IMG/VR virus record: IMGVR_UViG_3300033232_000051
Span: 1-45,810 of that record
Source: a virus
Lineage: Duplodnaviria; Caudoviricetes
Length of the DNA: 45,810 bases
Direction: 5' to 3' (one strand)
Both the position numbers and the translations under genes were made by a program. Positions 1-45,810 of this stretch are shown here, in pieces. The notes under the pieces were generated by a model. It saw only the letters and a list, made by a program, of their open reading frames with translations. It did not search any database and was not told the origin of the DNA. Numbering within the stretch: the stretch's first letter is position 1; every line of letters starts with the position of its first letter.

Positions 1-261
1 CTGGGATTAATATCCCTGTTGTTGTGGTTACATTACTTGCACCATAAAACACGTCTGTGTCGCTCACATTATAGATTATAATTGTTCTACGACCAACTTG
101 TTCAATTGTCGGAATTAAATAAGCAATATTCAATGTTGTTAAGGTTACTGCTGTTGTAACCATTGTTGTCAAAGCATTTGTATTGGTTATAAGTGTATCT
201 TGTTTTGCTGCTGTAGCTTTCCCAGTAGTATCACAAACAGTTATCTTTCCGTCAATACTTG
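1..261. repeat. Direct repeat, copy 1 (exact 1-127 = 30501-30627; diverged similarity continues to 261/30761)
   Basis: Direct comparison of both copies; first mismatch at 128/30628, scattered mismatches until similarity ends at about 261. Confidence 0.97.
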
Positions 262-6181: not shown

Positions 6182-6286
6182 TTATAAGATTATAGCAATT
6201 ATAGAGTGGTTTCCCACTTACTCTATATATAATACCTCTCATGTGAATAAGTGGGAAACCACTCTATATTTCACATAATCTTATAA
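6182..6286. repeat. Long inverted repeat, copy 1 (21-bp perfect core arms 6200-6220/6248-6268 plus 12-bp outer arms)
   Basis: TATAGAGTGGTTTCCCACTTA ... TAAGTGGGAAACCACTCTATA. Confidence 0.92.
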
Positions 6287-6447
6287 TTTTATTAGGCACC
6301 AAGTATATTATTATATAAATGTTACCCCACATATTAATCGAACCTCTATTTTTCGCAAACTTAAAAAACTCTCACCAATTAATAGTAACAATTTTTATCA
6401 TTTTTTTTTAAAATCCCACAGACCAAAAGAATAACCATAAAAATCGT

Positions 6448-6610
6448 TTTTATGGTTCTCAAAATATCTCCCAACCATATAACGCCGTTATATAACTTTT
6501 ATGGTTCTCAAAATATCTCCCAACCATATAACGCCGTTATATAACTTTTATGGTTCTCAAAATATCTCCCAACCATATAACGCCGTTATATAGCTTTTAT
6601 GGTTCTCAAA
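6448..6610. repeat. 49-bp tandem repeat, about 3.3 copies, internally palindromic (iteron-like)
   Basis: TATGGTTCTC at 6451, 6500, 6549 and 6598; each unit contains ATATAACG-C-CGTTATAT. Confidence 0.95.
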
Positions 6611-7486: not shown

Positions 7487-7858
7487 CTAACACCCGAACA
7501 CTGTTAATGAGGCGCATCCTAGGATTGCGCCTTTTTCATCCCTGACTAGTTGGTCAGGGATTAAGAAATCGTTTCGGTCGGGGAACGCCTGCCCCACAGC
7601 CAAAGACACGATATACATCGTGCCTTCAACACTTTCGGGAATTTCAGCACTCCCGAAATGTTTGCTGTAAACAGGTATACCGTTTACAGTAAATATTTTT
7701 TTTCTGTCCTCAGACAGTCTTATACTACCCTCGGAAGGGTAGTTCACAACGACTTTATTTGTCGTTGTGTCTATAATCCCTACATTGTGGGGAGTTAAAT
7801 TTATTATTTTTACATTAAACGAATGCAATTGTCCATTCTTATTTATTGTATCTTTCAT
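7487..7858 (-). CDS. Conserved viral protein of the NLTPH...LVRD..G..LGC type; homologue of 42126..42470
   Basis: Strong protein and DNA similarity to 42126..42470; GGTGA SD. Confidence 0.85.
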   Translation of the reverse strand: MKDTINKNGQLHSFNVKIINLTPHNVGIIDTTTNKVVVNYPSEGSIRLSEDRKKIFTVNGIPVYSKHFGSAEIPESVEGTMYIVSLAVGQAFPDRNDFLIPDQLVRDEKGAILGCASLTVFGC

Positions 7859-16180: not shown

Positions 16181-16300
16181 TAATCTTATAATTATAAGAT
16201 TATATGATTTATACAGTGGTTTCTCACTTATTATATATATAATATATTCTCATATATAATAAGTGAGAAACCACTGTATAAATCATATAATCTTATAATT
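16181..16300. repeat. Long inverted repeat, copy 2 (perfect 49-bp arms 16190-16238/16252-16300, overlapping a 22-bp palindrome at 16181-16202)
   Basis: Direct reading; homologous to 6182-6286. Confidence 0.95.
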
Positions 16301-16335
16301 TTAAAGAAACAATAATAAAAAAAAAGAATTAGTTG

Positions 16336-30408: not shown

Positions 30409-31230
30409 TTACTTCATCTCCAACGCATTTATAATTTTTCCAGACGTTCCACACACCGCATATAAACCACTCTCGCAATCTATGGCATCTTTACCACCCG
30501 CTGGGATTAATATCCCTGTTGTTGTGGTTACATTACTTGCACCATAAAACACGTCTGTGTCGCTCACATTATAGATTATAATTGTTCTACGACCAACTTG
30601 TTCAATTGTCGGAATTAAATAAGCAATGTTTAGTGTTGTTAAGGTTACTGCTGTTGTAACCATTGTTGCCAAAGCATTTGTATTGGTTATAAGTGTATCT
30701 TGTTTCGCAGATGTTGCTTTCCCAGTAGTATCACAAGCAGTTATCTTTCCATCAATACTTGTAGTATCACCAGCAATTGTTGATAATGATGTGTTAGATG
30801 TGTCTTGTTTTTCTTCTGTTGATGCATTAGTTGGTAAATCAACTTTAAACTTATTACTTAGATAATTAAATGTTCTTTGGAATATATCTTCGTGTCTAGA
30901 ACTAATTGTAAAATCATCTGTTATGGGTTCAACAGTTAAATCTTGTGCTGAATAACCAGTAGTAGTATTAACAGTAACAGTAGCGTTCTTATATTTCTTA
31001 ACACTATCTCCAAGTATATAAGCTTCAATTAATATTGGGTCTCCGTTCCGATAACCTTTATAATTTGCTAAATCTATTACATATTCACCGTTAGTGTCCG
31101 TAGATGTAGAACGAGTTTCATTTAAACGTTTATTTGTAACACGGATTGTTGCAGATGCAAGTACAAAAGTACCATCTACATCGTAAATTGTTCCAGAAAT
31201 TGTGTATGGTGTAGCGACCAATATAGTCAC
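30409..31230 (-). CDS. Beta-sandwich virion/surface protein; N-terminus B-specific, C-terminus shared with the A gene at 1..1000
   Basis: N-terminal domain paralogous to 31232..31765 and 31770..32480; 3' part spans the repeat. Confidence 0.75.
   Translation of the reverse strand: MTILVATPYTISGTIYDVDGTFVLASATIRVTNKRLNETRSTSTDTNGEYVIDLANYKGYRNGDPILIEAYILGDSVKKYKNATVTVNTTTGYSAQDLTVEPITDDFTISSRHEDIFQRTFNYLSNKFKVDLPTNASTEEKQDTSNTSLSTIAGDTTSIDGKITACDTTGKATSAKQDTLITNTNALATMVTTAVTLTTLNIAYLIPTIEQVGRRTIIIYNVSDTDVFYGASNVTTTTGILIPAGGKDAIDCESGLYAVCGTSGKIINALEMK
30501..30761. repeat. Direct repeat, copy 2; A/B junction
   Basis: Matches 1..261. Confidence 0.97.
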
Positions 31231-31231
31231 C

Positions 31232-31765
31232 TCATACGTCTGCTTGGATTAATGCTCGCATTGTATTTGCAGAAGGCACAATACATAAACCTTGAACCTT
31301 TATAGGAATTACAAAATTAAAAGGTACTGAACTTGAAGCAACAACCCTAATATCCATAATCTCTAAATCATTAGTTCTATCATAAAATTTCATGTATCCT
31401 ACAGCAGCAGCTGCATTTGTTACAATACCAGATAAGAGTTTCGTATCAAAATAAGCATGACTTGGACCAAACATTAAATATAAATTTTTAGTTTCTGAAC
31501 CACCAACAGTATCAGAAGCACTTGTTGTTGTACGATAATCTATTGACTCGTTACCAAAATAAGCCGATATAAATATTACATCACCAGAATTATAACCAGA
31601 TGATAGGTTAGCTAAATCTAATGAATATTCGCCAGAGGAATTTGTTGTTACGGTTACAGTCTCAGTAGTTCTTTGATTATATGCGATAACAGTAGCTGAA
31701 GCTTTTACTGTACTAGTATCAATTTCATATACTACTCCAGATATAGGGTATGGACTTGCTGGCAT
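31232..31765 (-). CDS. Carboxypeptidase-regulatory/transthyretin-like beta-sandwich protein
   Basis: PYPISGVVY..ATV..N.RT.E..TTNSSGEYSLDLAN..GD. Confidence 0.7.
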   Translation of the reverse strand: MPASPYPISGVVYEIDTSTVKASATVIAYNQRTTETVTVTTNSSGEYSLDLANLSSGYNSGDVIFISAYFGNESIDYRTTTSASDTVGGSETKNLYLMFGPSHAYFDTKLLSGIVTNAAAAVGYMKFYDRTNDLEIMDIRVVASSSVPFNFVIPIKVQGLCIVPSANTMRALIQADV

Positions 31766-31769
31766 AAAA

Positions 31770-32480
31770 TCACTTTAATTGGTATTCTTTGCTAATTACA
31801 TATTTATCATTAACATATACTGGAATAATCTCACCATAACCGTGTGTAATAGGAGACCTATGTACTCTATATATGGAATGTAAATAATCACGACCATAAT
31901 GTCTATGACTTTTTACACTAAATTTAAGTTTACCGTCTTTATCTTTATAAATACTAAGACCGATACCAGTTCCTACTAATAGACCTAATACCATTTCTAT
32001 GATACTATCTAATATTCCTTTATCTGGTAATTCTGTATCTTCACAGATTACTTTTTCTTCACATACTATTGGTTTAGGACAAGTTGTATCTTTACATTCT
32101 GTAACTGGACAGTTTTGTGTTGGACATTCACCAGTCATATCTACCTTAGTTATAGGTATTAGACCACCATTAAATGTTATTTTAGTTGTAACTTCGCCAA
32201 CTATAATTTCAAATCTATCGCCTTCAACAGCTTTTAATACTGTGTTAGACCAATCAATTAGATATTCACCGTTACCATTAGTTGTTCCAATGACTCGTTC
32301 ATTAGTTCTTACGTTAGTAATAACTACATTTAAATTTGATACTGGAACACTGTAAGCTGAGACTTTTACAACGATAGGCATTGGATTAAATACTGCTAAA
32401 GCTGGTGCTGTAAATAATGAAAATATCATTATTAATGTTATAAATTTAAGACCTAGCGATACCCATTGTTGTCGTTCCAT
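31770..32480 (-). CDS. Type I membrane protein: signal peptide, beta-sandwich, Cys/Pro linker, TM, His-rich tail
   Basis: Hydrophobic N-terminus ending APALA; TM IIEMVLGLLVGTGIGLSIY; HRHYGRDYLHSIYRVHRSPITH. Confidence 0.75.
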   Translation of the reverse strand: MERQQWVSLGLKFITLIMIFSLFTAPALAVFNPMPIVVKVSAYSVPVSNLNVVITNVRTNERVIGTTNGNGEYLIDWSNTVLKAVEGDRFEIIVGEVTTKITFNGGLIPITKVDMTGECPTQNCPVTECKDTTCPKPIVCEEKVICEDTELPDKGILDSIIEMVLGLLVGTGIGLSIYKDKDGKLKFSVKSHRHYGRDYLHSIYRVHRSPITHGYGEIIPVYVNDKYVISKEYQLK

Positions 32481-33621
32481 TTACGTTCACCCATACTCCA
32501 TATCCTTTTGGTACTTCTTTTGCACTATTAATTGATAACGCACAAGGGTGTGATATATATCTACTACCACTTGAAGCACTCATATCAACAAAAGTTGCAT
32601 AACTCATTGTTACTGTTGCATTATCTAAAGTCATACCACATATCTGTCCTAGAGTATTTGTAGTTGAATTTTGTAATGCTATCTGATTCCAACCAGATAT
32701 AATTGTTATATTTTTAGTAGGTACATCTGGAATCCAATTTCGTAATAGACTTGCAGTTGCATTTGAATATACATAAACAGCATCACCGTCTGTGACTGCT
32801 GTTGCATTATTAGTAATTGCACCTTCTATATATGTTGTATATGTATGTAATGCATTTGAATATATTGATGTTGAGGTTATTGTACCACTTAAATCAGCTA
32901 CACCTTTTAAAGTAGTAGTTTTATCTGCTAATATTAAATTCCAACCATCATAAATTATAGTTTTAGTCCAGTTAGTTGAATTTACCTCAACAGCTGTGTT
33001 TCCTAGTGAGTCATTTGTACCAACAACGATTTTGAATGTACCAGTCGTGTCAATATCAGCACCAGTTAAGTCAATGGAACATAGTTTACTTACTACAGAA
33101 CCACCCACAGTTGATACTAAAGTTGTAGTATCATCAAATATTTTAGCCCAACAAGCACTTACTATATTAGTTTCAGTAATTGTTGAGTTTACTCTTGCAG
33201 ACATTCCCGTAGCAGTTGAGTAATTATAAATAGTTAAAGCACCTATACTTGGCACAGTTGTATCTACGATTACAGTATGATATGTTGCTTGTGTACATGA
33301 ATGTTCTATATCACAAACCACACCAGTCCAGTTATAATAACCATCGGCTAGTACACCTGTATTAATTGTGAAAGCAACACCACTTGTTACATCGGTAGTA
33401 TTAGTAGTATTTATGCCCCATGTTCCAGAGAAATTACCCCAGATAGAAGCGTTAAGTAATGTTGTATTAGATACACCAGTAAAAGTCATTGCTGGTGTAG
33501 TATTAGTAGTATAATAAGGGTCGTCTGTTGGAGATGAAATAGTCATAGAACTAATAGTTCCTAATGCTACGGAACTGAATAATATGAATACCAAAAACAG
33601 TGCTATATATTTTTTTAACAT
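32446..33621 (-). CDS. Secreted Thr-rich Ig-like surface glycoprotein
   Basis: Signal peptide MLKKYIALFLVFILFSSVALG; more than a dozen N-x-S/T sequons; VDTTVP, GWNLI, GWNQI, GYGVWV motifs. Confidence 0.8.
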   Translation of the reverse strand: MLKKYIALFLVFILFSSVALGTISSMTISSPTDDPYYTTNTTPAMTFTGVSNTTLLNASIWGNFSGTWGINTTNTTDVTSGVAFTINTGVLADGYYNWTGVVCDIEHSCTQATYHTVIVDTTVPSIGALTIYNYSTATGMSARVNSTITETNIVSACWAKIFDDTTTLVSTVGGSVVSKLCSIDLTGADIDTTGTFKIVVGTNDSLGNTAVEVNSTNWTKTIIYDGWNLILADKTTTLKGVADLSGTITSTSIYSNALHTYTTYIEGAITNNATAVTDGDAVYVYSNATASLLRNWIPDVPTKNITIISGWNQIALQNSTTNTLGQICGMTLDNATVTMSYATFVDMSASSGSRYISHPCALSINSAKEVPKGYGVWVNVNGTTTMGIARS

Positions 33622-33652
33622 GTGACCAACCTATTATTTGTTAATACCCTTT

Positions 33653-34033
33653 TTATAAGTTCTTTAATTGTTTTAGTATATTGTCAGCTCGTTTATGTCC
33701 AATACCACTAATAGCAACTAAATCCTCTTTGTTTGCTTTAATTTTCATGTTAACGATTGTTTCATATTTAGTTGCTAAAATTCCGTCTAGTTCACTATCT
33801 ATGCCTTTTAAAACTGTAAAGTCCGATGTTATTTGTTCTGTAACTGGTAATTTGTATTTAGAAGAACTAACTAAACCATGATTTTCACCACGCCAAGCAT
33901 CTTTATCATCTATTTCAACGTCATTTCCAGATTCAACGTGAATCCATCTAAGTGAAGGCCTATTATATTTACCAACAGTTATAGGAATACCTACAGATAT
34001 CATTTTTTTAGTCGGGTTTACAAGTTTCATCAA
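33653..34033 (-). CDS. Protein with C-terminal tandem helix-hairpin-helix motifs
   Basis: DFTVLKGIDSELDGIL and DLVAISGIGHKRADNI. Confidence 0.7.
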   Translation of the reverse strand: MMKLVNPTKKMISVGIPITVGKYNRPSLRWIHVESGNDVEIDDKDAWRGENHGLVSSSKYKLPVTEQITSDFTVLKGIDSELDGILATKYETIVNMKIKANKEDLVAISGIGHKRADNILKQLKNL

Positions 34034-34047
34034 ATCGCCTTTATCAT

Positions 34048-34296
34048 TTAAATACTACCAAATATGATACATTCTATATCATCATTGTTAGTTCCAGTTA
34101 CTGTTATTGTTGTTCCACTTATTGTGTATGTTGCACCATTAATACCTCTAGCAACAATTATTGCAGAAAAAATTTCACTAAGACCATGTTCTACTGTTGT
34201 GATTGTTGAAGTTGTACCAGTTAGTTTAGCTTTTAATACAACCATTCCTAATACACCAGTTACTTCTTTTTTAACTATATTGTCAATTACTGCCAT
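34048..34296 (-). CDS. Small beta-rich virion protein (possible decoration)
   Basis: Downstream of MCP; GAGGT SD. Confidence 0.6.
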   Translation of the reverse strand: MAVIDNIVKKEVTGVLGMVVLKAKLTGTTSTITTVEHGLSEIFSAIIVARGINGATYTISGTTITVTGTNNDDIECIIFGSI

Positions 34297-34338
34297 TTAG
34301 ATTACCTCATAAAATTGGTATTAGGGAATTAACCCTAT

Positions 34339-34584
34339 TTACCATTTACCAAATACTATAGCCATACCAGCACCAGTACCAACTGAAAAAGTTATCGTTT
34401 CAGCAGACTGAGATGCTGGGTCGTTTATACCAGCAGAAGTTTTTGAGATTATCATGTCAATCTCATTAAACTCGCCAGTTGCATCTAGAGTATCTCCAGC
34501 ATAAGCTTTAGTGTAACGGTATACCCACGCATACTCACTACCTAATTCCAATCTTTTTTTAGTTATACTTGTTACAGAAGTCAT
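34339..34584 (-). CDS. Small beta-rich virion protein (possible decoration)
   Basis: Directly downstream of MCP; GGTGA SD. Confidence 0.6.
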   Translation of the reverse strand: MTSVTSITKKRLELGSEYAWVYRYTKAYAGDTLDATGEFNEIDMIISKTSAGINDPASQSAETITFSVGTGAGMAIVFGKW

Positions 34585-34601
34585 TTAATATCACCTATAA
34601 T

Positions 34602-35705
34602 TTAAGCACACCCATATATCCTATAACAACGTGTTTCATCTACGATAATCATAGTAAGATATGATTTTATCATAAATTTATAGGAATCAGATGTTTTTGC
34701 TAATTCTTCAAATACAGCGTCTTGTAAAACTCTCATTTGAATGTTTGCACCACCCATACCAGAACTTGTATCTAGTATAAGCATTTCTCTACCAGAACCA
34801 GATGTTGGCATGAATAAATCTGGCATTATTGGTACACCCTCATAAAGAATGTTCTCAATACCAAAGTTTACTGTAGCTGTAGGTGCTGGGTATCTTAAGA
34901 CATCAAAGATAAGACCTTTAACATCAGATAGCGTTTTGTAATCAGTTACACAAATTGTTGGTCTTCCATAAGCTTCACGAATAGTTCTGAAAGCATCAGT
35001 TATATTCTGTAGACTTATTTTTGCACCAGATTTGTTTGTTGTGTTAGTTGTAATACCATTAATCAAACCAGTAAAACCTCGTACATCAGTTACACTACCA
35101 TCATAATCATCAACAGTTGGATTACCATTAATAATCAAATTCTCTTCAAGTTCTTTCAAAGCTTGATACTCAGAAGGAATCATTAAATTAAGTGCGTCTT
35201 TCCATTGCTGTGCAGATGCAACTTGCATTGGACCAGATACTTCACCAACTGCATAGATGTAACTCATCTTTTGTGCAGAACGTGCATATGTAGCCGTACT
35301 TGAATTTAAACCACCCATTTCACCATTAACAACTGCTGTTGCTGGTGCAGTCATAGTAATGTAATCAGCGAATAATCCTTTATTAGTCATTCTAGGAATT
35401 ATACCCGATGCTAAAGGAGTATCTCGTTTAGTCAAGTCATAAAGAACTGGGTCAACTATTGTTGGTAACAATACTGGTATACTACCACTTGTACCAGAAT
35501 ATGTTGTTCCAGTAGCCATCAAAGGACTTGATGTAGTAAGAGCAGATTTTATTTCTAGTCTCTTATCAATTTGTAAACTTTTAACTTCTGTTATTGGTGT
35601 GTGAAGATATACTGTCTTATCTGGTGTGTCACCAAATGAAGATGTATATGATACTTCTCCGTTAACGGAATTTATAGAATCTATACCTGTATTCATAATA
35701 ATCAC
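34602..35705 (-). CDS. Major capsid protein (B), HK97 fold, no evident similarity to MCP A
   Basis: Follows the protease; PTIVDPVLYDLTKRDTPL, ELEENLIING, GFTGL, YEGVPIMPD, FEELAKTSDSYKFMI. Confidence 0.85.
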   Translation of the reverse strand: MIIMNTGIDSINSVNGEVSYTSSFGDTPDKTVYLHTPITEVKSLQIDKRLEIKSALTTSSPLMATGTTYSGTSGSIPVLLPTIVDPVLYDLTKRDTPLASGIIPRMTNKGLFADYITMTAPATAVVNGEMGGLNSSTATYARSAQKMSYIYAVGEVSGPMQVASAQQWKDALNLMIPSEYQALKELEENLIINGNPTVDDYDGSVTDVRGFTGLINGITTNTTNKSGAKISLQNITDAFRTIREAYGRPTICVTDYKTLSDVKGLIFDVLRYPAPTATVNFGIENILYEGVPIMPDLFMPTSGSGREMLILDTSSGMGGANIQMRVLQDAVFEELAKTSDSYKFMIKSYLTMIIVDETRCYRIYGCA

Positions 35706-35706
35706 T

Positions 35707-36606
35707 CTATTTCATTTTTGCTTCAACTATCATATCAACAAAACTTTTTGGTTCAGATTTAACTTCAAGTTGTGGTGAAGCATCTACCAATGGTTTCTGT
35801 TTATCAACAGCTGATACTGCTTCTGCTATCATAGATTTAATTTCGTCTTTTGAAATTTTATCTTCTTTAACAGTAGTTTCAATCTTTGATTTTATCTCTG
35901 AAAGTTCTTTATCTTTAGAAGCTAGTTCTAATTTAAGAGTTTCAAGTTGTGATTTGATTTCGTCTAGATCAGAATCAGTCATAACTTCTGGAGTTTCAAC
36001 TGTAGGTTCTGGTGTGACGATACCATCATCTACAACACCGTTTTCGTCTTCGTTGGACATATCATCTACCTCAATTTTAGATTTCACAAAGAAATCTGTG
36101 ATTTTACAAGCTTCACATGCGGGTTTGCCAGTTAAAGCAACACCACCTAGTTGTATCTTGTTTAGTACTCTTATATTTTTACCATTTATGTTAGTGTTTA
36201 TGTATTCTTTAGGTTTAAATTCCATTGAAAATGCATCAATGAAACCATCTTGGATTGAACCCCAAAGATTTTTAAATTCAGTATGGTGTTTGTTTAATTG
36301 TACTCGTATAAATAAGTTTTTGGATTTTATCTCAGCACTAATGATTTTTGCTTTAGGAACTATTGTGTTATCGCCTTTGAAATATTGTTCGTGTTCTTCA
36401 TTACCTTTCAATGCACCGGAAAAGTTAGAATCTACATTCCTACCATTAATTTGCTGTGCCATATCTTGTATACATTCTTCAGTAACCATATCATTTACTG
36501 AATCTAGATAATTAGCAACTTCTAAAATACCTTCAACATAATGATTCCCATTATCGGATTTAAATTCAAATGTATTTGGATATACTTTGATTTTTTTGAA
36601 GTCCAT
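35707..36606 (-). CDS. Prohead protease with scaffold tail (B)
   Basis: DSVND, EEH, DAFSMEF, GVALTGKPA; acidic linker and coiled coil. Confidence 0.85.
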   Translation of the reverse strand: MDFKKIKVYPNTFEFKSDNGNHYVEGILEVANYLDSVNDMVTEECIQDMAQQINGRNVDSNFSGALKGNEEHEQYFKGDNTIVPKAKIISAEIKSKNLFIRVQLNKHHTEFKNLWGSIQDGFIDAFSMEFKPKEYINTNINGKNIRVLNKIQLGGVALTGKPACEACKITDFFVKSKIEVDDMSNEDENGVVDDGIVTPEPTVETPEVMTDSDLDEIKSQLETLKLELASKDKELSEIKSKIETTVKEDKISKDEIKSMIAEAVSAVDKQKPLVDASPQLEVKSEPKSFVDMIVEAKMK

Positions 36607-36652: not shown

Positions 36653-38200
36653 TTAAAAGTTATTCATATTTTTTGTTCGTTGTTTAACATATTCTTGAAA
36701 TGGACCGTCTGATTTGACTTGAACATTCTTATCTTGTTTAACTTTATCTTGTGCGAGTTTATCTGTACTTTCAGTTAGCATTTGATGATTATTAAGTTGA
36801 TTTTGACGATTTGTACTATTACCTTGCATTATAATTTTTTCTTTATGTTCTTCAACGTCAGTATCAATCAAACCCATTTCATGTAATAATTTATCTTTAG
36901 TAAGCCGTAAATCATATCGTGCAAGAATATCTTGGTTTTTAGTTAAAGTGTCAGCTCTCATCATAGCGATTTGAGTTTCTCGCACTTCATCTTGTTTATA
37001 CGTTCTATTAAATCGTAATGTGACTTTATACTCATCTAGTAACTGAGAATTTATCATATCCTCATAAATATTTTGAATATGTCCTACCTTCCTATAATAA
37101 CCTTCGGTTGATGTATTACTTCCAGTCACACCAGTACCGACCAATAAATCACTTAGACGTGAACTAGGAATACTCCAGACCATAACCATTAATTGAGTTA
37201 GATATCTAGCAAGTTCTCTGAACTCCATATCGTGGTCCATTTTATTTAGTTCTTTGACTTCAACTTTTCCAGTTAAAACTAGATTTTTATACTTATGAGT
37301 GATGTTAGCATATTGTTGAATAGCTTTCTTCATTTCCTTGTAATCGTTATCGGATGAGTTTGCATCTTCCATTATGAACATATAATTTGGTACGCCACCT
37401 TTCCTAAAATAATATCTGGTATAATCACGGATATCATCTAAAACGTCCATAATAGTTAAAAGAGATTGTGTTGGGGAATATCCATAGACTTTACCGTTAA
37501 TACGCATTAATCTAAAGTGAACTATCTGTTCTGGAGTGAACATAACACTCTCAGCACTATTCATTGGTCTCTGGATATAATGTTGTACGTCTCCATATTT
37601 ATTAGCAGTAATCTTTATTGTTGATGATGGAATATCAATAAACTGTCGTGTGGAAAATAGGTCTTCCTCAGTTGATTTTATAACTAGTTCGGTTAAATCC
37701 GAAATGGATTTCTGTTCATAACCATTATGACGTTTCTTAATAACCCTTGTTAGACTTTTACGGAAATCTGATTTTGTAAATGAATCTTTCCAAATATAAC
37801 CGTCCCCAGTTAAAAGTGTATCTATTAAAACTGAATGTAAGATTTCTTTAGCATGGTTATCACTTAGGAATTTCTCAGCACGTTGTACGTTATTACGACC
37901 ACCTTCAAGTCTCCAACCGTCACTTATAATGTCGTCAACGATTGCAGTTAAGATTGCTTGTAATTCTGGTGATGCCTTGAAATATGCCCAAAGAGTATCG
38001 TAATCAACTTCGGGGCCTCTACCGTATGGTGTAGCTATGACTGGTGACGGATTTTCGTTTGATAACGGAAAAGAATTAGAAACGGATTTTATTTCTGTTG
38101 TATTGCTTATTAACACGTTATCATTAAATGATTTCAAACTATTAGTAAATGAATCATATACTTTTCTCAAATAAGGATTATTATTGCTATTCATAACCAT
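36653..38200 (-). CDS. Portal protein (B)
   Basis: TLLTGDGYI, FTPEQIVHF, YGYSP, YFRKGGVP, DMEFREL. Confidence 0.9.
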   Translation of the reverse strand: MVMNSNNNPYLRKVYDSFTNSLKSFNDNVLISNTTEIKSVSNSFPLSNENPSPVIATPYGRGPEVDYDTLWAYFKASPELQAILTAIVDDIISDGWRLEGGRNNVQRAEKFLSDNHAKEILHSVLIDTLLTGDGYIWKDSFTKSDFRKSLTRVIKKRHNGYEQKSISDLTELVIKSTEEDLFSTRQFIDIPSSTIKITANKYGDVQHYIQRPMNSAESVMFTPEQIVHFRLMRINGKVYGYSPTQSLLTIMDVLDDIRDYTRYYFRKGGVPNYMFIMEDANSSDNDYKEMKKAIQQYANITHKYKNLVLTGKVEVKELNKMDHDMEFRELARYLTQLMVMVWSIPSSRLSDLLVGTGVTGSNTSTEGYYRKVGHIQNIYEDMINSQLLDEYKVTLRFNRTYKQDEVRETQIAMMRADTLTKNQDILARYDLRLTKDKLLHEMGLIDTDVEEHKEKIIMQGNSTNRQNQLNNHQMLTESTDKLAQDKVKQDKNVQVKSDGPFQEYVKQRTKNMNNF

Positions 38201-38629: not shown

Positions 38630-40105
38630 TTAACACACATCAAAACTATATGAACTCTTTTTTGAATATGACGCCTCTAAAGCCATACCAAGACTCATTA
38701 CACAATCATCTTTATTACCGACACCCTCATAAGTCTCTTTCAATACCCTACCCATTAAATCCTTACGAACAACTTTTGAGAAACTGCGGAGTTCATTTAT
38801 CAATATCTCGTTATCCAATAAAATTAAAGTTCCAGTACTTAACGCAGACTGGATATTAGCTATTAATAGTTCTTTATTTGCTTGGGTTGTAATAAATCCT
38901 TTCATTACACTTTTTGTCTCTTGCATTTCCGTTAACGTTCTAACTAGACCTTTACTGAGTCCGTTCTCTTCAATTACAATCTGACGGAAGTTAAATATCT
39001 TATGAAGCTTAACAATACGTTCAATCTGTCTTTCAGTCTTCATTCCTTGATATCGTTCCAGTTTGACTATATATTGTGTTCCTTCAGGATTTACACCAAT
39101 TATCGTGTATACTGAGAAATCTGCTTTAGATTGGTCTGCAAGTGCGATATCACCACCCATATAATAAATCCAACCATCTCTAGGTTTATTTTGTATCTCA
39201 ACGTGACGATTCTCTAACAAGTTCTCAGTAAAGATACTAGAACCACCAGCCAGCGGATTACACATATATTCCCTATCAAAACGTAAGCCACCCATTAATG
39301 CACGAGTAGCTTTCAAGTTATCTAGAGACCCAAATTGTGGGTGGTCTTTCCATAACGGTGCTATCCATTTACCGTTTTTATCCGTTATAGCCGCTTGCCA
39401 TCGTCCACCGACCGGAGTAAGTCGTGCTTTTTTTAGGACTTCTTTAATTTCCTTTGAAGGGTATTGTAAATCGTTAAGTAAGTCATCTGTAGTCATCGGT
39501 GTACCTACAAGGACTATCTGACCTCTACCCATGTCACTCGCCGGGAAAATAACGTTCCAGAATAAATCTTTTACTTGGTCTTGCGTATATTTCTCGTCTC
39601 TAAGAATATCATCACAAATTGTGAAATTAGGACGTACACCACGACTTGTAGGTTTTAATGGTTTTACGAATGCCATATTACCAGTCACGGTTTCTAACTG
39701 TCTCGTGTTCCATTTCATATCCGTTCCCTCTGGACGGAGGTTTTTAAAAAAGGGGTTATTCATTATGATGTCGTGGACTTGTTTTAAGTTACTCTCAGTC
39801 TGTTCACGACTTGCACTAAACATTGCTATCTTACATTTCTTCTCACGCCAGAGTCGCCAGAGAACGTAACCAACTGAAACGTTTGTGGTTTTACCGAAAC
39901 CACGAGGTAAGATTAAATAAACGATTTGACCAGAGAAAAGGTAATTAGTCATGTCAACGTGGAATGGTGCGAACTTAATATCAAAAACGCCTTCAATGAA
40001 AACTTGAAGACTAAAATATGCTTTCTGACGAAATAATGCCTCATCAATCGGTGTTGCAAAGTTCATCATTTTTTCCCAACACCATGTATCGTAACTGAGT
40101 ATCAT
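38630..40105 (-). CDS. terL: Terminase large subunit (B); true start probably near 40069
   Basis: LPRGFGKTT Walker A, SRGVRP..ICDDI, VGTP, GGDIA, DFS, IEEN, DDCVMSL. Confidence 0.93.
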   Translation of the reverse strand: MILSYDTWCWEKMMNFATPIDEALFRQKAYFSLQVFIEGVFDIKFAPFHVDMTNYLFSGQIVYLILPRGFGKTTNVSVGYVLWRLWREKKCKIAMFSASREQTESNLKQVHDIIMNNPFFKNLRPEGTDMKWNTRQLETVTGNMAFVKPLKPTSRGVRPNFTICDDILRDEKYTQDQVKDLFWNVIFPASDMGRGQIVLVGTPMTTDDLLNDLQYPSKEIKEVLKKARLTPVGGRWQAAITDKNGKWIAPLWKDHPQFGSLDNLKATRALMGGLRFDREYMCNPLAGGSSIFTENLLENRHVEIQNKPRDGWIYYMGGDIALADQSKADFSVYTIIGVNPEGTQYIVKLERYQGMKTERQIERIVKLHKIFNFRQIVIEENGLSKGLVRTLTEMQETKSVMKGFITTQANKELLIANIQSALSTGTLILLDNEILINELRSFSKVVRKDLMGRVLKETYEGVGNKDDCVMSLGMALEASYSKKSSYSFDVC

Positions 40106-42125: not shown

Positions 42126-42470
42126 ATGAATAATAAAAATCTAAAAATTAGAAATATGACCCCTCACGATGTGGGGGTTATAGATAAAACGACTAATAAA
42201 GTCGTTATAAACTACCTTTCAGAAGGTAGCATAAGGCTAACTGAAGAGAGAGAGTTTTTATATACTGTAAACGGCGTATCTGTTTATAGCAAAACTTTCG
42301 GGAGTGCTGAAATTCCCGAAAAAGTTAAAGATACGATGTATATCGTGTCTTTGGCGGTCGGGCAGGCCTATCCTGAGCGTACAGATTTCTTAATTCCGGA
42401 CCAATTGGTTCGGGATGAAAAAGGGGTAGTCTTAGGATGCACCTCTTTTACGGTTTTTAGTAATTACTGA
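42126..42470 (+). CDS. Conserved viral protein (NMTPH...LVRDEKG), homologue of 7487..7858
   Basis: AAGGAGG SD; homology to the A copy. Confidence 0.85.
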   Translation: MNNKNLKIRNMTPHDVGVIDKTTNKVVINYLSEGSIRLTEEREFLYTVNGVSVYSKTFGSAEIPEKVKDTMYIVSLAVGQAYPERTDFLIPDQLVRDEKGVVLGCTSFTVFSNY

Positions 42471-43404: not shown

Positions 43405-44058
43405 ATGGGATATAAATATATAAATAAAATAGGTATAGAAATAGAGGGAGGTTGGATACACTCCTTTATTTTAAAATATCTAAAAGGAGATGGTTCCGTA
43501 CATATCAATAATATGAGATGTTATGATGACGACGATGATGAGGATGAGGATTATAATGAACCCTATGGGTATTCCGGCGAAGTTTGTAGTGAACCTATAA
43601 ATATTCAGGAGGGTATTGAATATATAAATAACTATTATCCCGATGAGTTTAATGAAACTTGTGGGATTCATTTCCATATATCATTTAAAAACAATAAATA
43701 CGCCTCTATATTAACAGATAAACGGTTTTATGAGATGTTTATTAAAGACTTTACTGTTTGGGGATTAAAACAGAAAATAGATTCTAGTTCTTTATTCTGG
43801 ACCCGTTTAAACGGGAAAAATCAATTCTGTAAAAATATATTTAATCCGGACGGTCAGATATTACAAAACGATAGTAGATATACACAAATAAACTTTTGCT
43901 CATTAAAAAAACATAACACAGTTGAATTTAGAGTATTTCCGGTATTTGATAAAAAGCATCAAACTGTAAGTGCTTTAAAAAAATTAGTATCTATAATTAA
44001 TAAATTTATCGATAAATGTAACAAAGAGTATTCTGAAAAAATAACAATTAACATATAA
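43405..44058 (+). CDS. Putative amidoligase (glutamine synthetase-like COOH-NH2 ligase)
   Basis: GIEIE, DGS, GEVCSEP, TCGIHFHIS, RY..IN, TVEFR. Confidence 0.85.
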   Translation: MGYKYINKIGIEIEGGWIHSFILKYLKGDGSVHINNMRCYDDDDDEDEDYNEPYGYSGEVCSEPINIQEGIEYINNYYPDEFNETCGIHFHISFKNNKYASILTDKRFYEMFIKDFTVWGLKQKIDSSSLFWTRLNGKNQFCKNIFNPDGQILQNDSRYTQINFCSLKKHNTVEFRVFPVFDKKHQTVSALKKLVSIINKFIDKCNKEYSEKITINI

Positions 44059-44074
44059 GGGGGAGTGGATAATT

Positions 44075-44827
44075 ATGTGTATAGTATTAGTATGTAAAAC
44101 AGAAAAACCTACAATGGAAATTCTCAAAAATTGTGAAGAATCAAATGGCGATGGTGCCGGGATATCATGGCGAGAAGGAAATAAAATAAAATGGTCTAAA
44201 GGACATAATGCAGAAGAGATTTATACATTAAGTCAGTCTGTTGAATTGCCTTTTATAGTTCATTTTAGATTCGCCACAGTCGGAGGTTCTATAAAGGAAC
44301 TATGTCACCCTTTTAGTGTAACAAAAGATGTTAAAACAACATTAAAAGGTAGTGCAAAAGAGGTTATAATGCATAACGGTCATTGGTCCAATTGGTCTGA
44401 AGCTTTAAAAAACAATATGATATGTTCTAGTGCTAGAATACCTACGGGGGTATGGTCGGATACACGAGCTATTGCATATTTTACAAATAGATGCGGTTCA
44501 GGATTTTTACAGATGTTAGATGAAAAGGTTGTATTGTTTAATATGAAACATATAACTATATTTGGTTCTGGTTGGACTGAAGAAGATAATGGTATTATTT
44601 ATTCAAATACAGAGTATAAAGGTCGTTATAAAAGTGTATATCGTGAAGAAAAATGGACTAATAGACACTATAGAAACGGATATTATAAAAAAAATGGACA
44701 TTCTTATGGTCAGGATTATGAAGATAATACGCTAGAAGATGAAGAAAAGGAATTTGAAACAGATAGATTGGATAAAGATGAAAAATGTAAAAATGCTACA
44801 ATCTGTATGGCGGAATATATGGATTAA
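44075..44827 (+). CDS. Class II (Ntn) glutamine amidotransferase
   Basis: N-terminal Cys2, NGDGAG, HFRFAT, HPF, HNG, SDT. Confidence 0.9.
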   Translation: MCIVLVCKTEKPTMEILKNCEESNGDGAGISWREGNKIKWSKGHNAEEIYTLSQSVELPFIVHFRFATVGGSIKELCHPFSVTKDVKTTLKGSAKEVIMHNGHWSNWSEALKNNMICSSARIPTGVWSDTRAIAYFTNRCGSGFLQMLDEKVVLFNMKHITIFGSGWTEEDNGIIYSNTEYKGRYKSVYREEKWTNRHYRNGYYKKNGHSYGQDYEDNTLEDEEKEFETDRLDKDEKCKNATICMAEYMD

Positions 44828-44839
44828 GGGGGTGTTATT

Positions 44840-45313
44840 ATGGATAAATTATTAGAAAATAAAGATGTAACTAAAACTATAAATGATTATGACTTATTAT
44901 TTGTATATGGAACTTTACGAAAATCCGGTAGTTTACATAAACTGTATTTAACCGATGCAATTTATAGTACTACAATAAAATTAAGTGGTGTTAAATTGTA
45001 TGAGTCTCAACTCCTACCTGTTGCCGTTTTGACTAAAAAGGATAAACATAAGATTAAAGGGGAGTTATATTATGTTCTTAAAACGGATATGCTCTCTATA
45101 GACAGATTAGAAAGTAGTTATAGAAAAGTTAAATTAACCGTTGCGATTAGCGGGTATAGTGAAAAACAAGAAGTTATAATGTATGTTAAAAAAACAACAG
45201 AAATTATAAATTTACAACCTTATCGTATTAAATCTGGCGATTGGATATTACATCAAAAGATTTTTGAAGATAAAGTTAATAAAATGTGTGAAGAAGAACG
45301 GTTTTGTATGTAA
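44840..45313 (+). CDS. Gamma-glutamylcyclotransferase (AIG2-like)
   Basis: FVYGTLR, GELY, IDRLE..YR. Confidence 0.9.
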   Translation: MDKLLENKDVTKTINDYDLLFVYGTLRKSGSLHKLYLTDAIYSTTIKLSGVKLYESQLLPVAVLTKKDKHKIKGELYYVLKTDMLSIDRLESSYRKVKLTVAISGYSEKQEVIMYVKKTTEIINLQPYRIKSGDWILHQKIFEDKVNKMCEEERFCM

Positions 45314-45781: not shown

Positions 45782-45810
45782 AGATCGGAAGAGCACACGT
45801 CTGAACTCCA
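45782..45810 (+). other. Illumina TruSeq adapter contamination
   Basis: AGATCGGAAGAGCACACGTCTGAACTCCA matches the adapter exactly. Confidence 0.99.

Follow-up and report, generated by a model that had tools for sequence, protein, structure and literature searches.

Considering that tailed viruses assemble in the cytoplasm and that archaeal N-glycosylation takes place outside the membrane, AglB glycans are not expected on tailed virions. Hoc of phage T4 and other Ig-domain capsid decoration proteins reportedly consist of tandem Ig-like domains with an attaching C-terminal domain and are dispensable, Hoc itself being said to be made and attached in the cytoplasm and to be unglycosylated. In the cohesin-dockerin system of the cellulosome, a secreted modular protein is said to carry a terminal docking domain; a membrane-anchored protein holds this domain through a small beta-sandwich, which is reused in several fusions. 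The current work concerns a gene block located in the capsid operon of a virus, named B, present in a 45,810-nucleotide stretch of viral DNA (Duplodnaviria; Caudoviricetes; positions 1 to 45,810 of IMG/VR record IMGVR_UViG_3300033232_000051), the whole of which is referred to as the window. The block follows the gene for the major capsid protein (MCP) and encodes a predicted exported glycoprotein of 391 amino acids (aa), a predicted membrane protein (TM1) and two further proteins of 177 and 273 aa.

This block is real and conserved and represents an apparently undescribed docking module; no account of it was found in the literature covered, which comprised main-text passages and left most subscription journals outside. 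Based on the observed gene order, its conservation, the tails of relatives, domain homology, sequon patterns and the fusion of a docking domain to a head-tail adaptor, we somewhat favour the reading that B represents part of the genome of a likely archaeal and likely ordinary tailed virus, in which a three-part docking module would load the glycoprotein onto virions at lysis. The three parts are predicted to be an exported Ig-domain N-glycoprotein, an anchor in the membrane, and proteins of the neck and likely of the head that carry the same docking domain.

The predicted glycoprotein and its candidate docking partner

The 391-aa protein comprises a predicted signal peptide (approximately residues 1-21), two Ig/Fn3-like domains (approximately 21-223) and a C-terminal GWN domain (218-391), the latter being an internal duplication with one of the two GWN motifs of the protein in each half. 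Signal peptides and transmembrane helices were called throughout by a hydropathy heuristic in combination with an AlphaFold helix. With its N-terminal hydrophobic helix and its 18 N-x-S/T sequons, as compared to a mean of 7.8 in shuffled sequences (P=0.001, 2000 shuffles), the protein agrees with the original prediction, made from the sequence alone, of a signal-peptide protein dense in sequons and bearing GWN motifs. In its AlphaFold2 model (predicted local distance difference test score, pLDDT, of 81.6), the Ig/Fn3 domains gave structure matches of up to Z 10.9 (root-mean-square deviation, rmsd, of 2.6 Å over 90 aligned residues), and the tandem region matched the Fn3 tandem of CbhA (3pdd) with Z 10.8 (rmsd 4.5 Å, 175 aligned). 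The model of the GWN domain (pLDDT 89.4) is almost all beta; PDB structure searches retrieved no solved-fold counterpart (best Z 4.6), BFVD yielded one match, to a marine phage protein (E=3.8e-4, TM-score 0.58), and the ESM Atlas returned only unnamed clusters (0.90-0.91). None of the four module proteins matched a PHROG or NCBIfam family, and the 391-aa and 177-aa proteins had no match among GenBank phages.

A set of homologues was obtained through a library-wide profile search, in which the profile retained the Ig columns: 44 of the best 150 matches possess a GWN domain, the remaining 106 being mostly giant Ig-repeat proteins. The GWN domain is C-terminal in all 44, an N-terminal hydrophobic segment is present in 39, and a C-terminal transmembrane helix occurs in 0/44; this last result, and the lack of a Pfam or NCBIfam match, give no support to an S-layer identity. 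Each of the 44 homologues exceeds its shuffled sequon mean, mostly two- to threefold, and across eight family members 285 sequons were counted where 113 were expected. Because D/E is not enriched at sequon position -2 (5.7% versus a background of 6.9%), these sequons are not of the bacterial PglB type. The family therefore carries both markers of AglB-type modification, namely an export signal (by the hydropathy heuristic) and an N-x-S/T excess without D/E at -2, and from its sequences looks like a group of exported AglB-type N-glycoproteins whose Ig stalk varies and which do not possess their own anchor.

TM1 is predicted to be composed of a signal peptide (residues 1-29), a transthyretin-like (TTR-like) ectodomain (30-113), a Cys-rich stalk, a transmembrane helix (approximately 159-177) and a cytoplasmic His tail; its hydrophobic segments near residues 6 and 159 bear out the type I membrane protein that had been proposed. 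In the tail (window 31770-31950), H192, H194, H201 and H207 are invariant in 6/6 aligned members and likely constitute a metal site; the TM1 versions of loci L040 and L122 carry a basic tail in place of the His tail. Two soluble paralogues had also been recognized from the sequence, and these correspond to the 177-aa and 273-aa proteins, to whose N-terminal domains the TM1 ectodomain is homologous (HHalign 97.6%) and thus represents a third paralogue. The two proteins show weak matches to Pfam CarboxypepD_reg (E 1.5e-5 and 1.7e-6, respectively), which lie under the curated cut-off, the PF13620 scores being 25.6 and 28.8 bits in B and up to 31.5 in relatives for a cut-off of 32.3. Structure rows of the ESM Atlas listed CarboxypepD_reg and prealbumin-like families at TM-scores of 0.33-0.40, and the TTR alignment found no sequence match in the PDB.

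Because the glycoprotein lacks an anchor and its gene overlaps that of TM1, the GWN domain was modelled together with the TM1 ectodomain. The predicted complex obtained a score of 0.76, the best of three controls reaching 0.01, and the mark applied to this score was reached by 116 of 157 solved pairs and 2 of 215 mismatched pairs, counts that are valid only roughly for the alignments used here. Individual runs had at least 89% of contacts in common, with a partner pLDDT of at least 89. The modelling supports, short of demonstration, the prediction that the GWN domain binds the TM1 ectodomain. On the GWN side of this predicted interface, 8 sequons fall on 25 interface positions versus 421 on 148 other positions (44 homologues), and W227, W311, Y355 and W377 are conserved in 84-95% of the homologues. 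Exported TTR domains contain 0 sequons where 11.0 are expected (14 proteins, after removal of two near-duplicates), and the docking residue Asn79 lies within a sequon in 0/10 exported and 16/18 non-exported copies; the docking face therefore appears to be kept free of glycan sites, which is not so for copies that would not be expected to encounter AglB.

Conservation of the block, the virion side and alternative explanations

Relatives were collected through the MCP (68 proteins at E<=1e-60), four scans yielding 6, 80, 8 and 2 loci that are partly duplicates, and a close set was defined as 8 distinct loci whose MCP is 51-60% identical to that of B and which extend at least 4.8 kb beyond it. 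The full block was found in the order seen in B, followed by a head-tail adaptor gene, in six of these eight (L008, L009, L011, L016, L018 and L021, of which L016 and L018 are near-identical). PHROG matches past the block identify the adaptor (phrog_442, E down to 9e-21) and, where the DNA extends far enough, a terminator (phrog_176) and Neck1 (phrog_5); relatives with neck and tail genes possess an MCP that is 54-60% identical to that of B. A complete relative of 40,353 bp with direct terminal repeats (G284) carries both block and tail; further downstream come genes resembling those for tube, chaperone, tape measure, Dit and hub, together with one for a small membrane protein, the tube, chaperone and Dit calls being based on position and local profiles and not on library matches. 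A holin-like gene is present in G285 (PF16083, E=1.8e-4). The closest relative, which was not recovered by the locus scans, carries homologues of the 391-aa protein (70%) and the MCP (85%) on one 30,382-bp contig. Judged from these gene orders, these are ordinary tailed viruses in which the block is inserted between the genes for the head and those for the neck.

These results modify the original prediction, according to which the capsid operon of B continues into exported and membrane-anchored proteins instead of neck and tail genes. The block proved real, conserved and situated in the capsid operon, but relatives run it into adaptor, neck and tail genes. B, which had correctly been regarded as incomplete, is cut where it is joined to a second virus inside the 273-aa open reading frame (ORF), and therefore the lack of tail genes in its visible part is uninformative. 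It had further been considered that complete relatives might bear an ordinary tail and lack the membrane genes: G284 does have such a tail, yet retains the membrane genes.

A scan with the TTR domain only returned eight loci, four of them new; a GWN protein and TM1 adjoin the domain in three of the four, and the fourth ends inside a signal-bearing protein. Two of the new loci carry an MCP of the type of the second virus of the window, virus A (L116, tested, 41% identical to that of A; L122, by eye), and the module stands alongside other MCP types in L115, L116 and L122. The module therefore moves between capsid lineages. Of the 29 loci that continue for 5 kb or more beyond the MCP, 7 carry GWN together with TTR, 22 carry neither and 0 carry one alone, a co-occurrence that speaks in favour of the proposed module. 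A weak TTR match in L066 was dropped, being a small post-MCP protein. L115 (4897-6879) encodes its prohead protease and MCP as a single fused ORF of 660 aa. Glycosyltransferase-like and methyltransferase-like genes were noticed inside the tail module of relatives (L011:11700-13056, L018:15373-16735, L106:16728-17561).

On the virion side, docking residues are retained in non-exported TTR copies: P33 in 17/22, D/E76 in 21/22 and N79 in 20/22. The TTR docking domain is fused to the head-tail adaptor in five relatives (one such fusion being L011:8214-9032), in the slot of the 273-aa ORF of B, and in L115 to a gene between Neck1 and tube. A homologue of the 177-aa protein occupies the same position in 6/6 relatives with the full block; the protein is a likely virion component. 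The C-terminal domain of the 273-aa ORF matched PDB entry 9t9r, annotated as 'Penton base (GP14)', over its residues 78-161 (E=0.0037), a faint resemblance to a penton-base jelly roll.

In the favoured reading, the 391-aa protein would be exported by Sec and glycosylated by the AglB of the host, after which this anchorless glycoprotein would be kept on the infected cell by TM1. Cytoplasmic TTR copies would meanwhile become part of the particle, either at the adaptor ring, in the terminator slot or at capsid vertices. At lysis, these copies would meet the glycoprotein and take it from TM1, the outcome being a Hoc-like glycosylated appendage that may serve adhesion, shielding or stability. Export, membrane topology and binding between the GWN domain and the TM1 ectodomain are predictions; the loading of virions we infer. 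A wider version can be proposed more tentatively, namely that a broad group of archaeal tailed viruses completes its particles in two compartments, the appendages being exported, N-glycosylated, stockpiled on a viral anchor and clipped to neck or capsid at lysis, with giant signal-bearing glycoproteins of the tail tip perhaps handled alike. Further large, N-terminally hydrophobic and sequon-rich proteins were noticed among the structural genes of relatives (L106:6267-13208, L107:4725-8204, L115:18785-20201, L121:6558-9410, L061, L071, L076, L080, L082 and L092); one such protein, 2,313 aa long, contains LamG and Kelch domains as well as 139 sequons and lies between Dit-like and hub-like genes.

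Several observations weigh against the loading of virions. The block is absent from two of the eight close relatives, L029 having neck and tail without it and L092 having different signal-bearing proteins. Counts over the loci, such as that of GWN and TTR occurring together, are not independent, the loci being related and several having seeded the profiles. At the PxP motif, five of the 22 non-exported copies (L040, L121) fail to align, the terminator in L115 is called from its position plus a weak BLAST match (E=4e-4), PHROG giving no match, and the penton match of the 273-aa ORF is itself weak. Conservation of the interface is only modestly above background (0.66 versus 0.56 in soluble copies, 0.54 versus 0.43 in GWN). 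The complex model has a single docking site, so that a hand-over requires exchange from TM1. Finally, the non-exported TTR domains are sequon-rich (52 versus 26.5 expected; 20 proteins, two removed), mostly through three conserved columns of which two are interface residues; on the favoured reading this excess can be explained only by inherited structural Asn motifs, and another cause may apply.

The strongest competing explanation, which we consider unlikely though worth serious attention, is that the module serves conversion of the host surface only: the glycoprotein held by TM1 would shield the infected cell, block superinfection or mediate adhesion between cells, and the TTR copies of the cytoplasm would have some other function. 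Modelling covered the predicted complex with TM1 alone, the Ig domains are similar to giant surface proteins of cells, one of them named from Woesearchaeota, and the block is dispensable, as the two relatives without it indicate. What this explanation leaves unaccounted for is the retention of docking residues in non-exported copies, the fusion of the domain to adaptor and other structural genes, and the place of the genes in the capsid operon. The host-surface remodelling that had been suggested from the sequence survives as a part of the proposed mechanism or as its main rival. Rather less probable is a tethering role, in which glycoprotein on cells or debris captures TTR-bearing virions, so that progeny are held for contact transfer or related viruses meet a decoy; it draws on the same domain evidence as virion loading and on the adhesin-like Ig domains, yet the glycoprotein, which has a single docking site and lacks its own anchor (0/44), cannot hold TM1 and a virion together, unless it is oligomeric or retains its signal peptide. 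The tail-less HK97 head, enveloped or budding via membrane proteins, that had originally been envisaged is hardly credible, for despite the membrane and exported genes inside the capsid operon and a conserved cytoplasmic His motif of TM1 that could bind a cytoplasmic partner, relatives with the block have siphovirus-type neck and tail as well as holin-like genes, the gap in B coincides with the join, B encodes a portal and terminase unlike enveloped or budding viruses of the pleolipovirus and fusellovirus type, and archaeal head-tailed viruses are described in parts of PMC10384203 as lipid-free and leaving by lysis.

Contig make-up, gene order and host

The window is made up of one contig (C189), belonging to a bin of 1.77 Mb, and of an adapter tail, and contains two sets each of terminase, portal, protease and MCP genes (Pfam and PHROG). 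Bases 1-261 recur at 30501-30761 with 96% identity; the opening 127 nt of this repeat are identical and the first mismatch is base 128. The GC (guanine plus cytosine) fraction is 0.383 in A and 0.330 in B. When closed from 1 to 30500, virus A forms a 30.5-kb circle with head, neck, tail and replication genes, and it appears to be a complete circular tailed-virus genome; its genes include PolB, a primase-helicase, a nuclease-helicase fusion and a full head, neck and tail set. B is likely a fragment whose own continuation is absent from the contig, and its junction with A inside the 273-aa ORF, where the last 31 codons are those of A, is likely an assembly join, because the distance between the contig start and the last mismatch is exactly 127 bases, the value given by a de Bruijn vertex at an assembler setting of k=127.

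A true co-integrate, in which A recombined into B at a common gene, would alter only the origin of the contig and leave the reading of the block unchanged. A and B have two recent genes in common (96% and 79% DNA identity), which indicates past DNA exchange, but the 127-base distance expected of a k=127 graph vertex and the adapter sequence at the other contig end make a co-integrate improbable. The second of these genes (7487-7858 and 42126-42470; 72% protein and 79% DNA identity; phrog_30542) suggests, from sequence identity, recent exchange and perhaps a common host. The adapter-like sequence at 45782-45810, which we take to be an Illumina adapter, is not in the genome contig. At 6448-6610, where A is non-coding, a tandem repeat of 49 bp adjoins an inverted repeat and is a possible replication origin. 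An amidoligase-like, a glutamine amidotransferase-like and a gamma-glutamyl cyclotransferase gene form a trio in B (43405-45313). A sigma-70 promoter scan gave no excess of promoter-like sites (54 versus 63 expected), and such a scan is ill-suited to archaea.

Features of the capsid operon of virus B and of the junction with virus A (window positions)
Feature	Position	Strand	Remarks
Large terminase (B)	38630-40105	-	Pfam, PHROG
Portal (B)	36653-38200	-	Pfam, PHROG
Prohead protease (B)	35707-36606	-	Pfam, PHROG
MCP (B), HK97 fold family	34602..35705	-	Pfam SU10_MCP E=2.3e-13; phrog_25898
81-aa small protein	34339..34584	-	Kept after MCP; likely paralogue of 82-aa protein (23% identical)
82-aa small protein	34048..34296	-	Conserved post-MCP position
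126-aa HhH-motif protein	33653..34033	-	Pfam HHH_5 E=3e-5
391-aa predicted exported glycoprotein	32446..33621	-	Sequon excess, AlphaFold2 model, homologue survey
236-aa predicted type I membrane protein (TM1)	31770..32480	-	35-nt overlap with the 391-aa gene
177-aa protein without signal peptide	31232..31765	-	TTR-like docking domain and small conserved C-terminal domain
273-aa ORF	30409..31230	-	TTR-like docking domain 4-104, linker, C-terminal domain common with virus A
Junction repeat	30501..30761	.	96% copy of 1-261; boundary of virus A (1-30500) and virus B
Junction-repeat copy of A	1..261	.	Inside open-ended ORF 2-1000 of A, which resumes at 30500 if A is circular

The Caudoviricetes markers found in B are an HK97-fold MCP, a portal, a large terminase and a protease (Pfam, PHROG). 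The two small ORFs and the HhH protein following the MCP are present as first noted. The former likely encode capsid decoration proteins, for the 82-aa protein as judged by position, and gave no significant PDB sequence match; the latter is a common post-MCP gene of the virus group, with homologues also in relatives that lack the block.

With respect to the host, the bin carries an archaeal 16S gene, which we take to be Methanosarcinales-like, together with mcrA. When window proteins were compared with the other contigs of the bin by tblastn, the sole match was a helicase, and no spacer-like match was obtained; the MCP profile had no match in a further 283 genomes from the order of the bin. 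DNA matches in 60 relatives are short and weak, 15 of 150 genomes matched by the Ig part only, and the bin labels of MCP homologues conflict (Heimdallarchaeaceae, Planctomycetota, Gammaproteobacteria). The bin assignment is doubtful, as none of these comparisons tied B to the bin. Two of ten giant Ig-repeat matches looked up had an organism label ('archaeon' and 'Woesearchaeota archaeon'), which points weakly to a DPANN host. The inverted repeats of A (6182-6291, 16186-16304) contain a 12-base motif that also occurs in a repeated element of 62 bp found in the bin (on C76, C90 and further contigs); this motif, of which 40 copies lie outside the window, was picked after looking and is weak evidence, and might link A to the organism of the bin.

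Significance and comparison with known systems

If virion loading is correct, a docking pair common to a membrane anchor and neck proteins would bypass the compartment barrier and add a post-export assembly step, finished virions then likely acquiring, from outside the cell, a coat protein glycosylated by the host. Novelty hinges on this loading step, and the proposal is amenable to testing through three small domains and named residues. Under surface conversion, the module would amount to surface display of a virus-encoded type, and would still represent a new virus-encoded anchor-and-cargo pair with a domain lacking a solved fold. The locus also carries a warning, in that a striking 'no tail' feature arose from a likely two-virus assembly join in a binned contig.

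Among described archaeal viruses, a likeness is offered by the turrets of the tailed virus HFTV1 (10.1101/2024.12.09.627619), in which a base and a head protein are added to the capsid and host-glycan binding is proposed; that text, unlike the situation in B, contains no 'signal peptide', its passages covered here describe no membrane partner, and PDB searches with the GWN domain gave no fold match. Spike or capsid proteins of pleolipoviruses and fuselloviruses, as treated in parts of PMC10384203, resemble the module in being virus-encoded and host N-glycosylated for stability or attachment, whereas these viruses are enveloped and bud, their proteins crossing the membrane during assembly, and the viruses of the module have portal, terminase, neck and tail. 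The same parts of that source report that HRTV-DL1, which is head-tailed, is unaffected by aglB deletion. The penton base of NO16 forms a protruding jelly roll (PMC13552765, in part), the link from PDB 9t9r to this paper being drawn from the name, as the identifier is not in its main text; its GP14 is likened to the module by the match of the 273-aa C-terminal domain, and differs in that NO16 is non-tailed and the match weak.

As in Hoc, the 391-aa protein combines tandem Ig/Fn3 domains with a C-terminal, putatively attaching domain and is dispensable; unlike Hoc, it has an N-terminal hydrophobic segment (39/44 homologues), selected sequons and, as its predicted docking partner, a separate TTR-like domain. 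Searches of PHROGs, PDB folds and GenBank phages gave no T4-type match for the module, nor was Hoc among the GWN fold matches listed (best Z 4.6). The likeness to the cohesin-dockerin pair lies in a terminal docking domain that would be held by the beta-sandwich of TM1, a sandwich which recurs in several fusions; no window protein matched Pfam cohesin or dockerin at E 0.01, and the docking domain of the module differs in being an all-beta duplicated fold whose receptor is also present on virion proteins. By analogy, the module would work like a cohesin-dockerin pair that delivers a Hoc-like appendage, while being a member of neither family.

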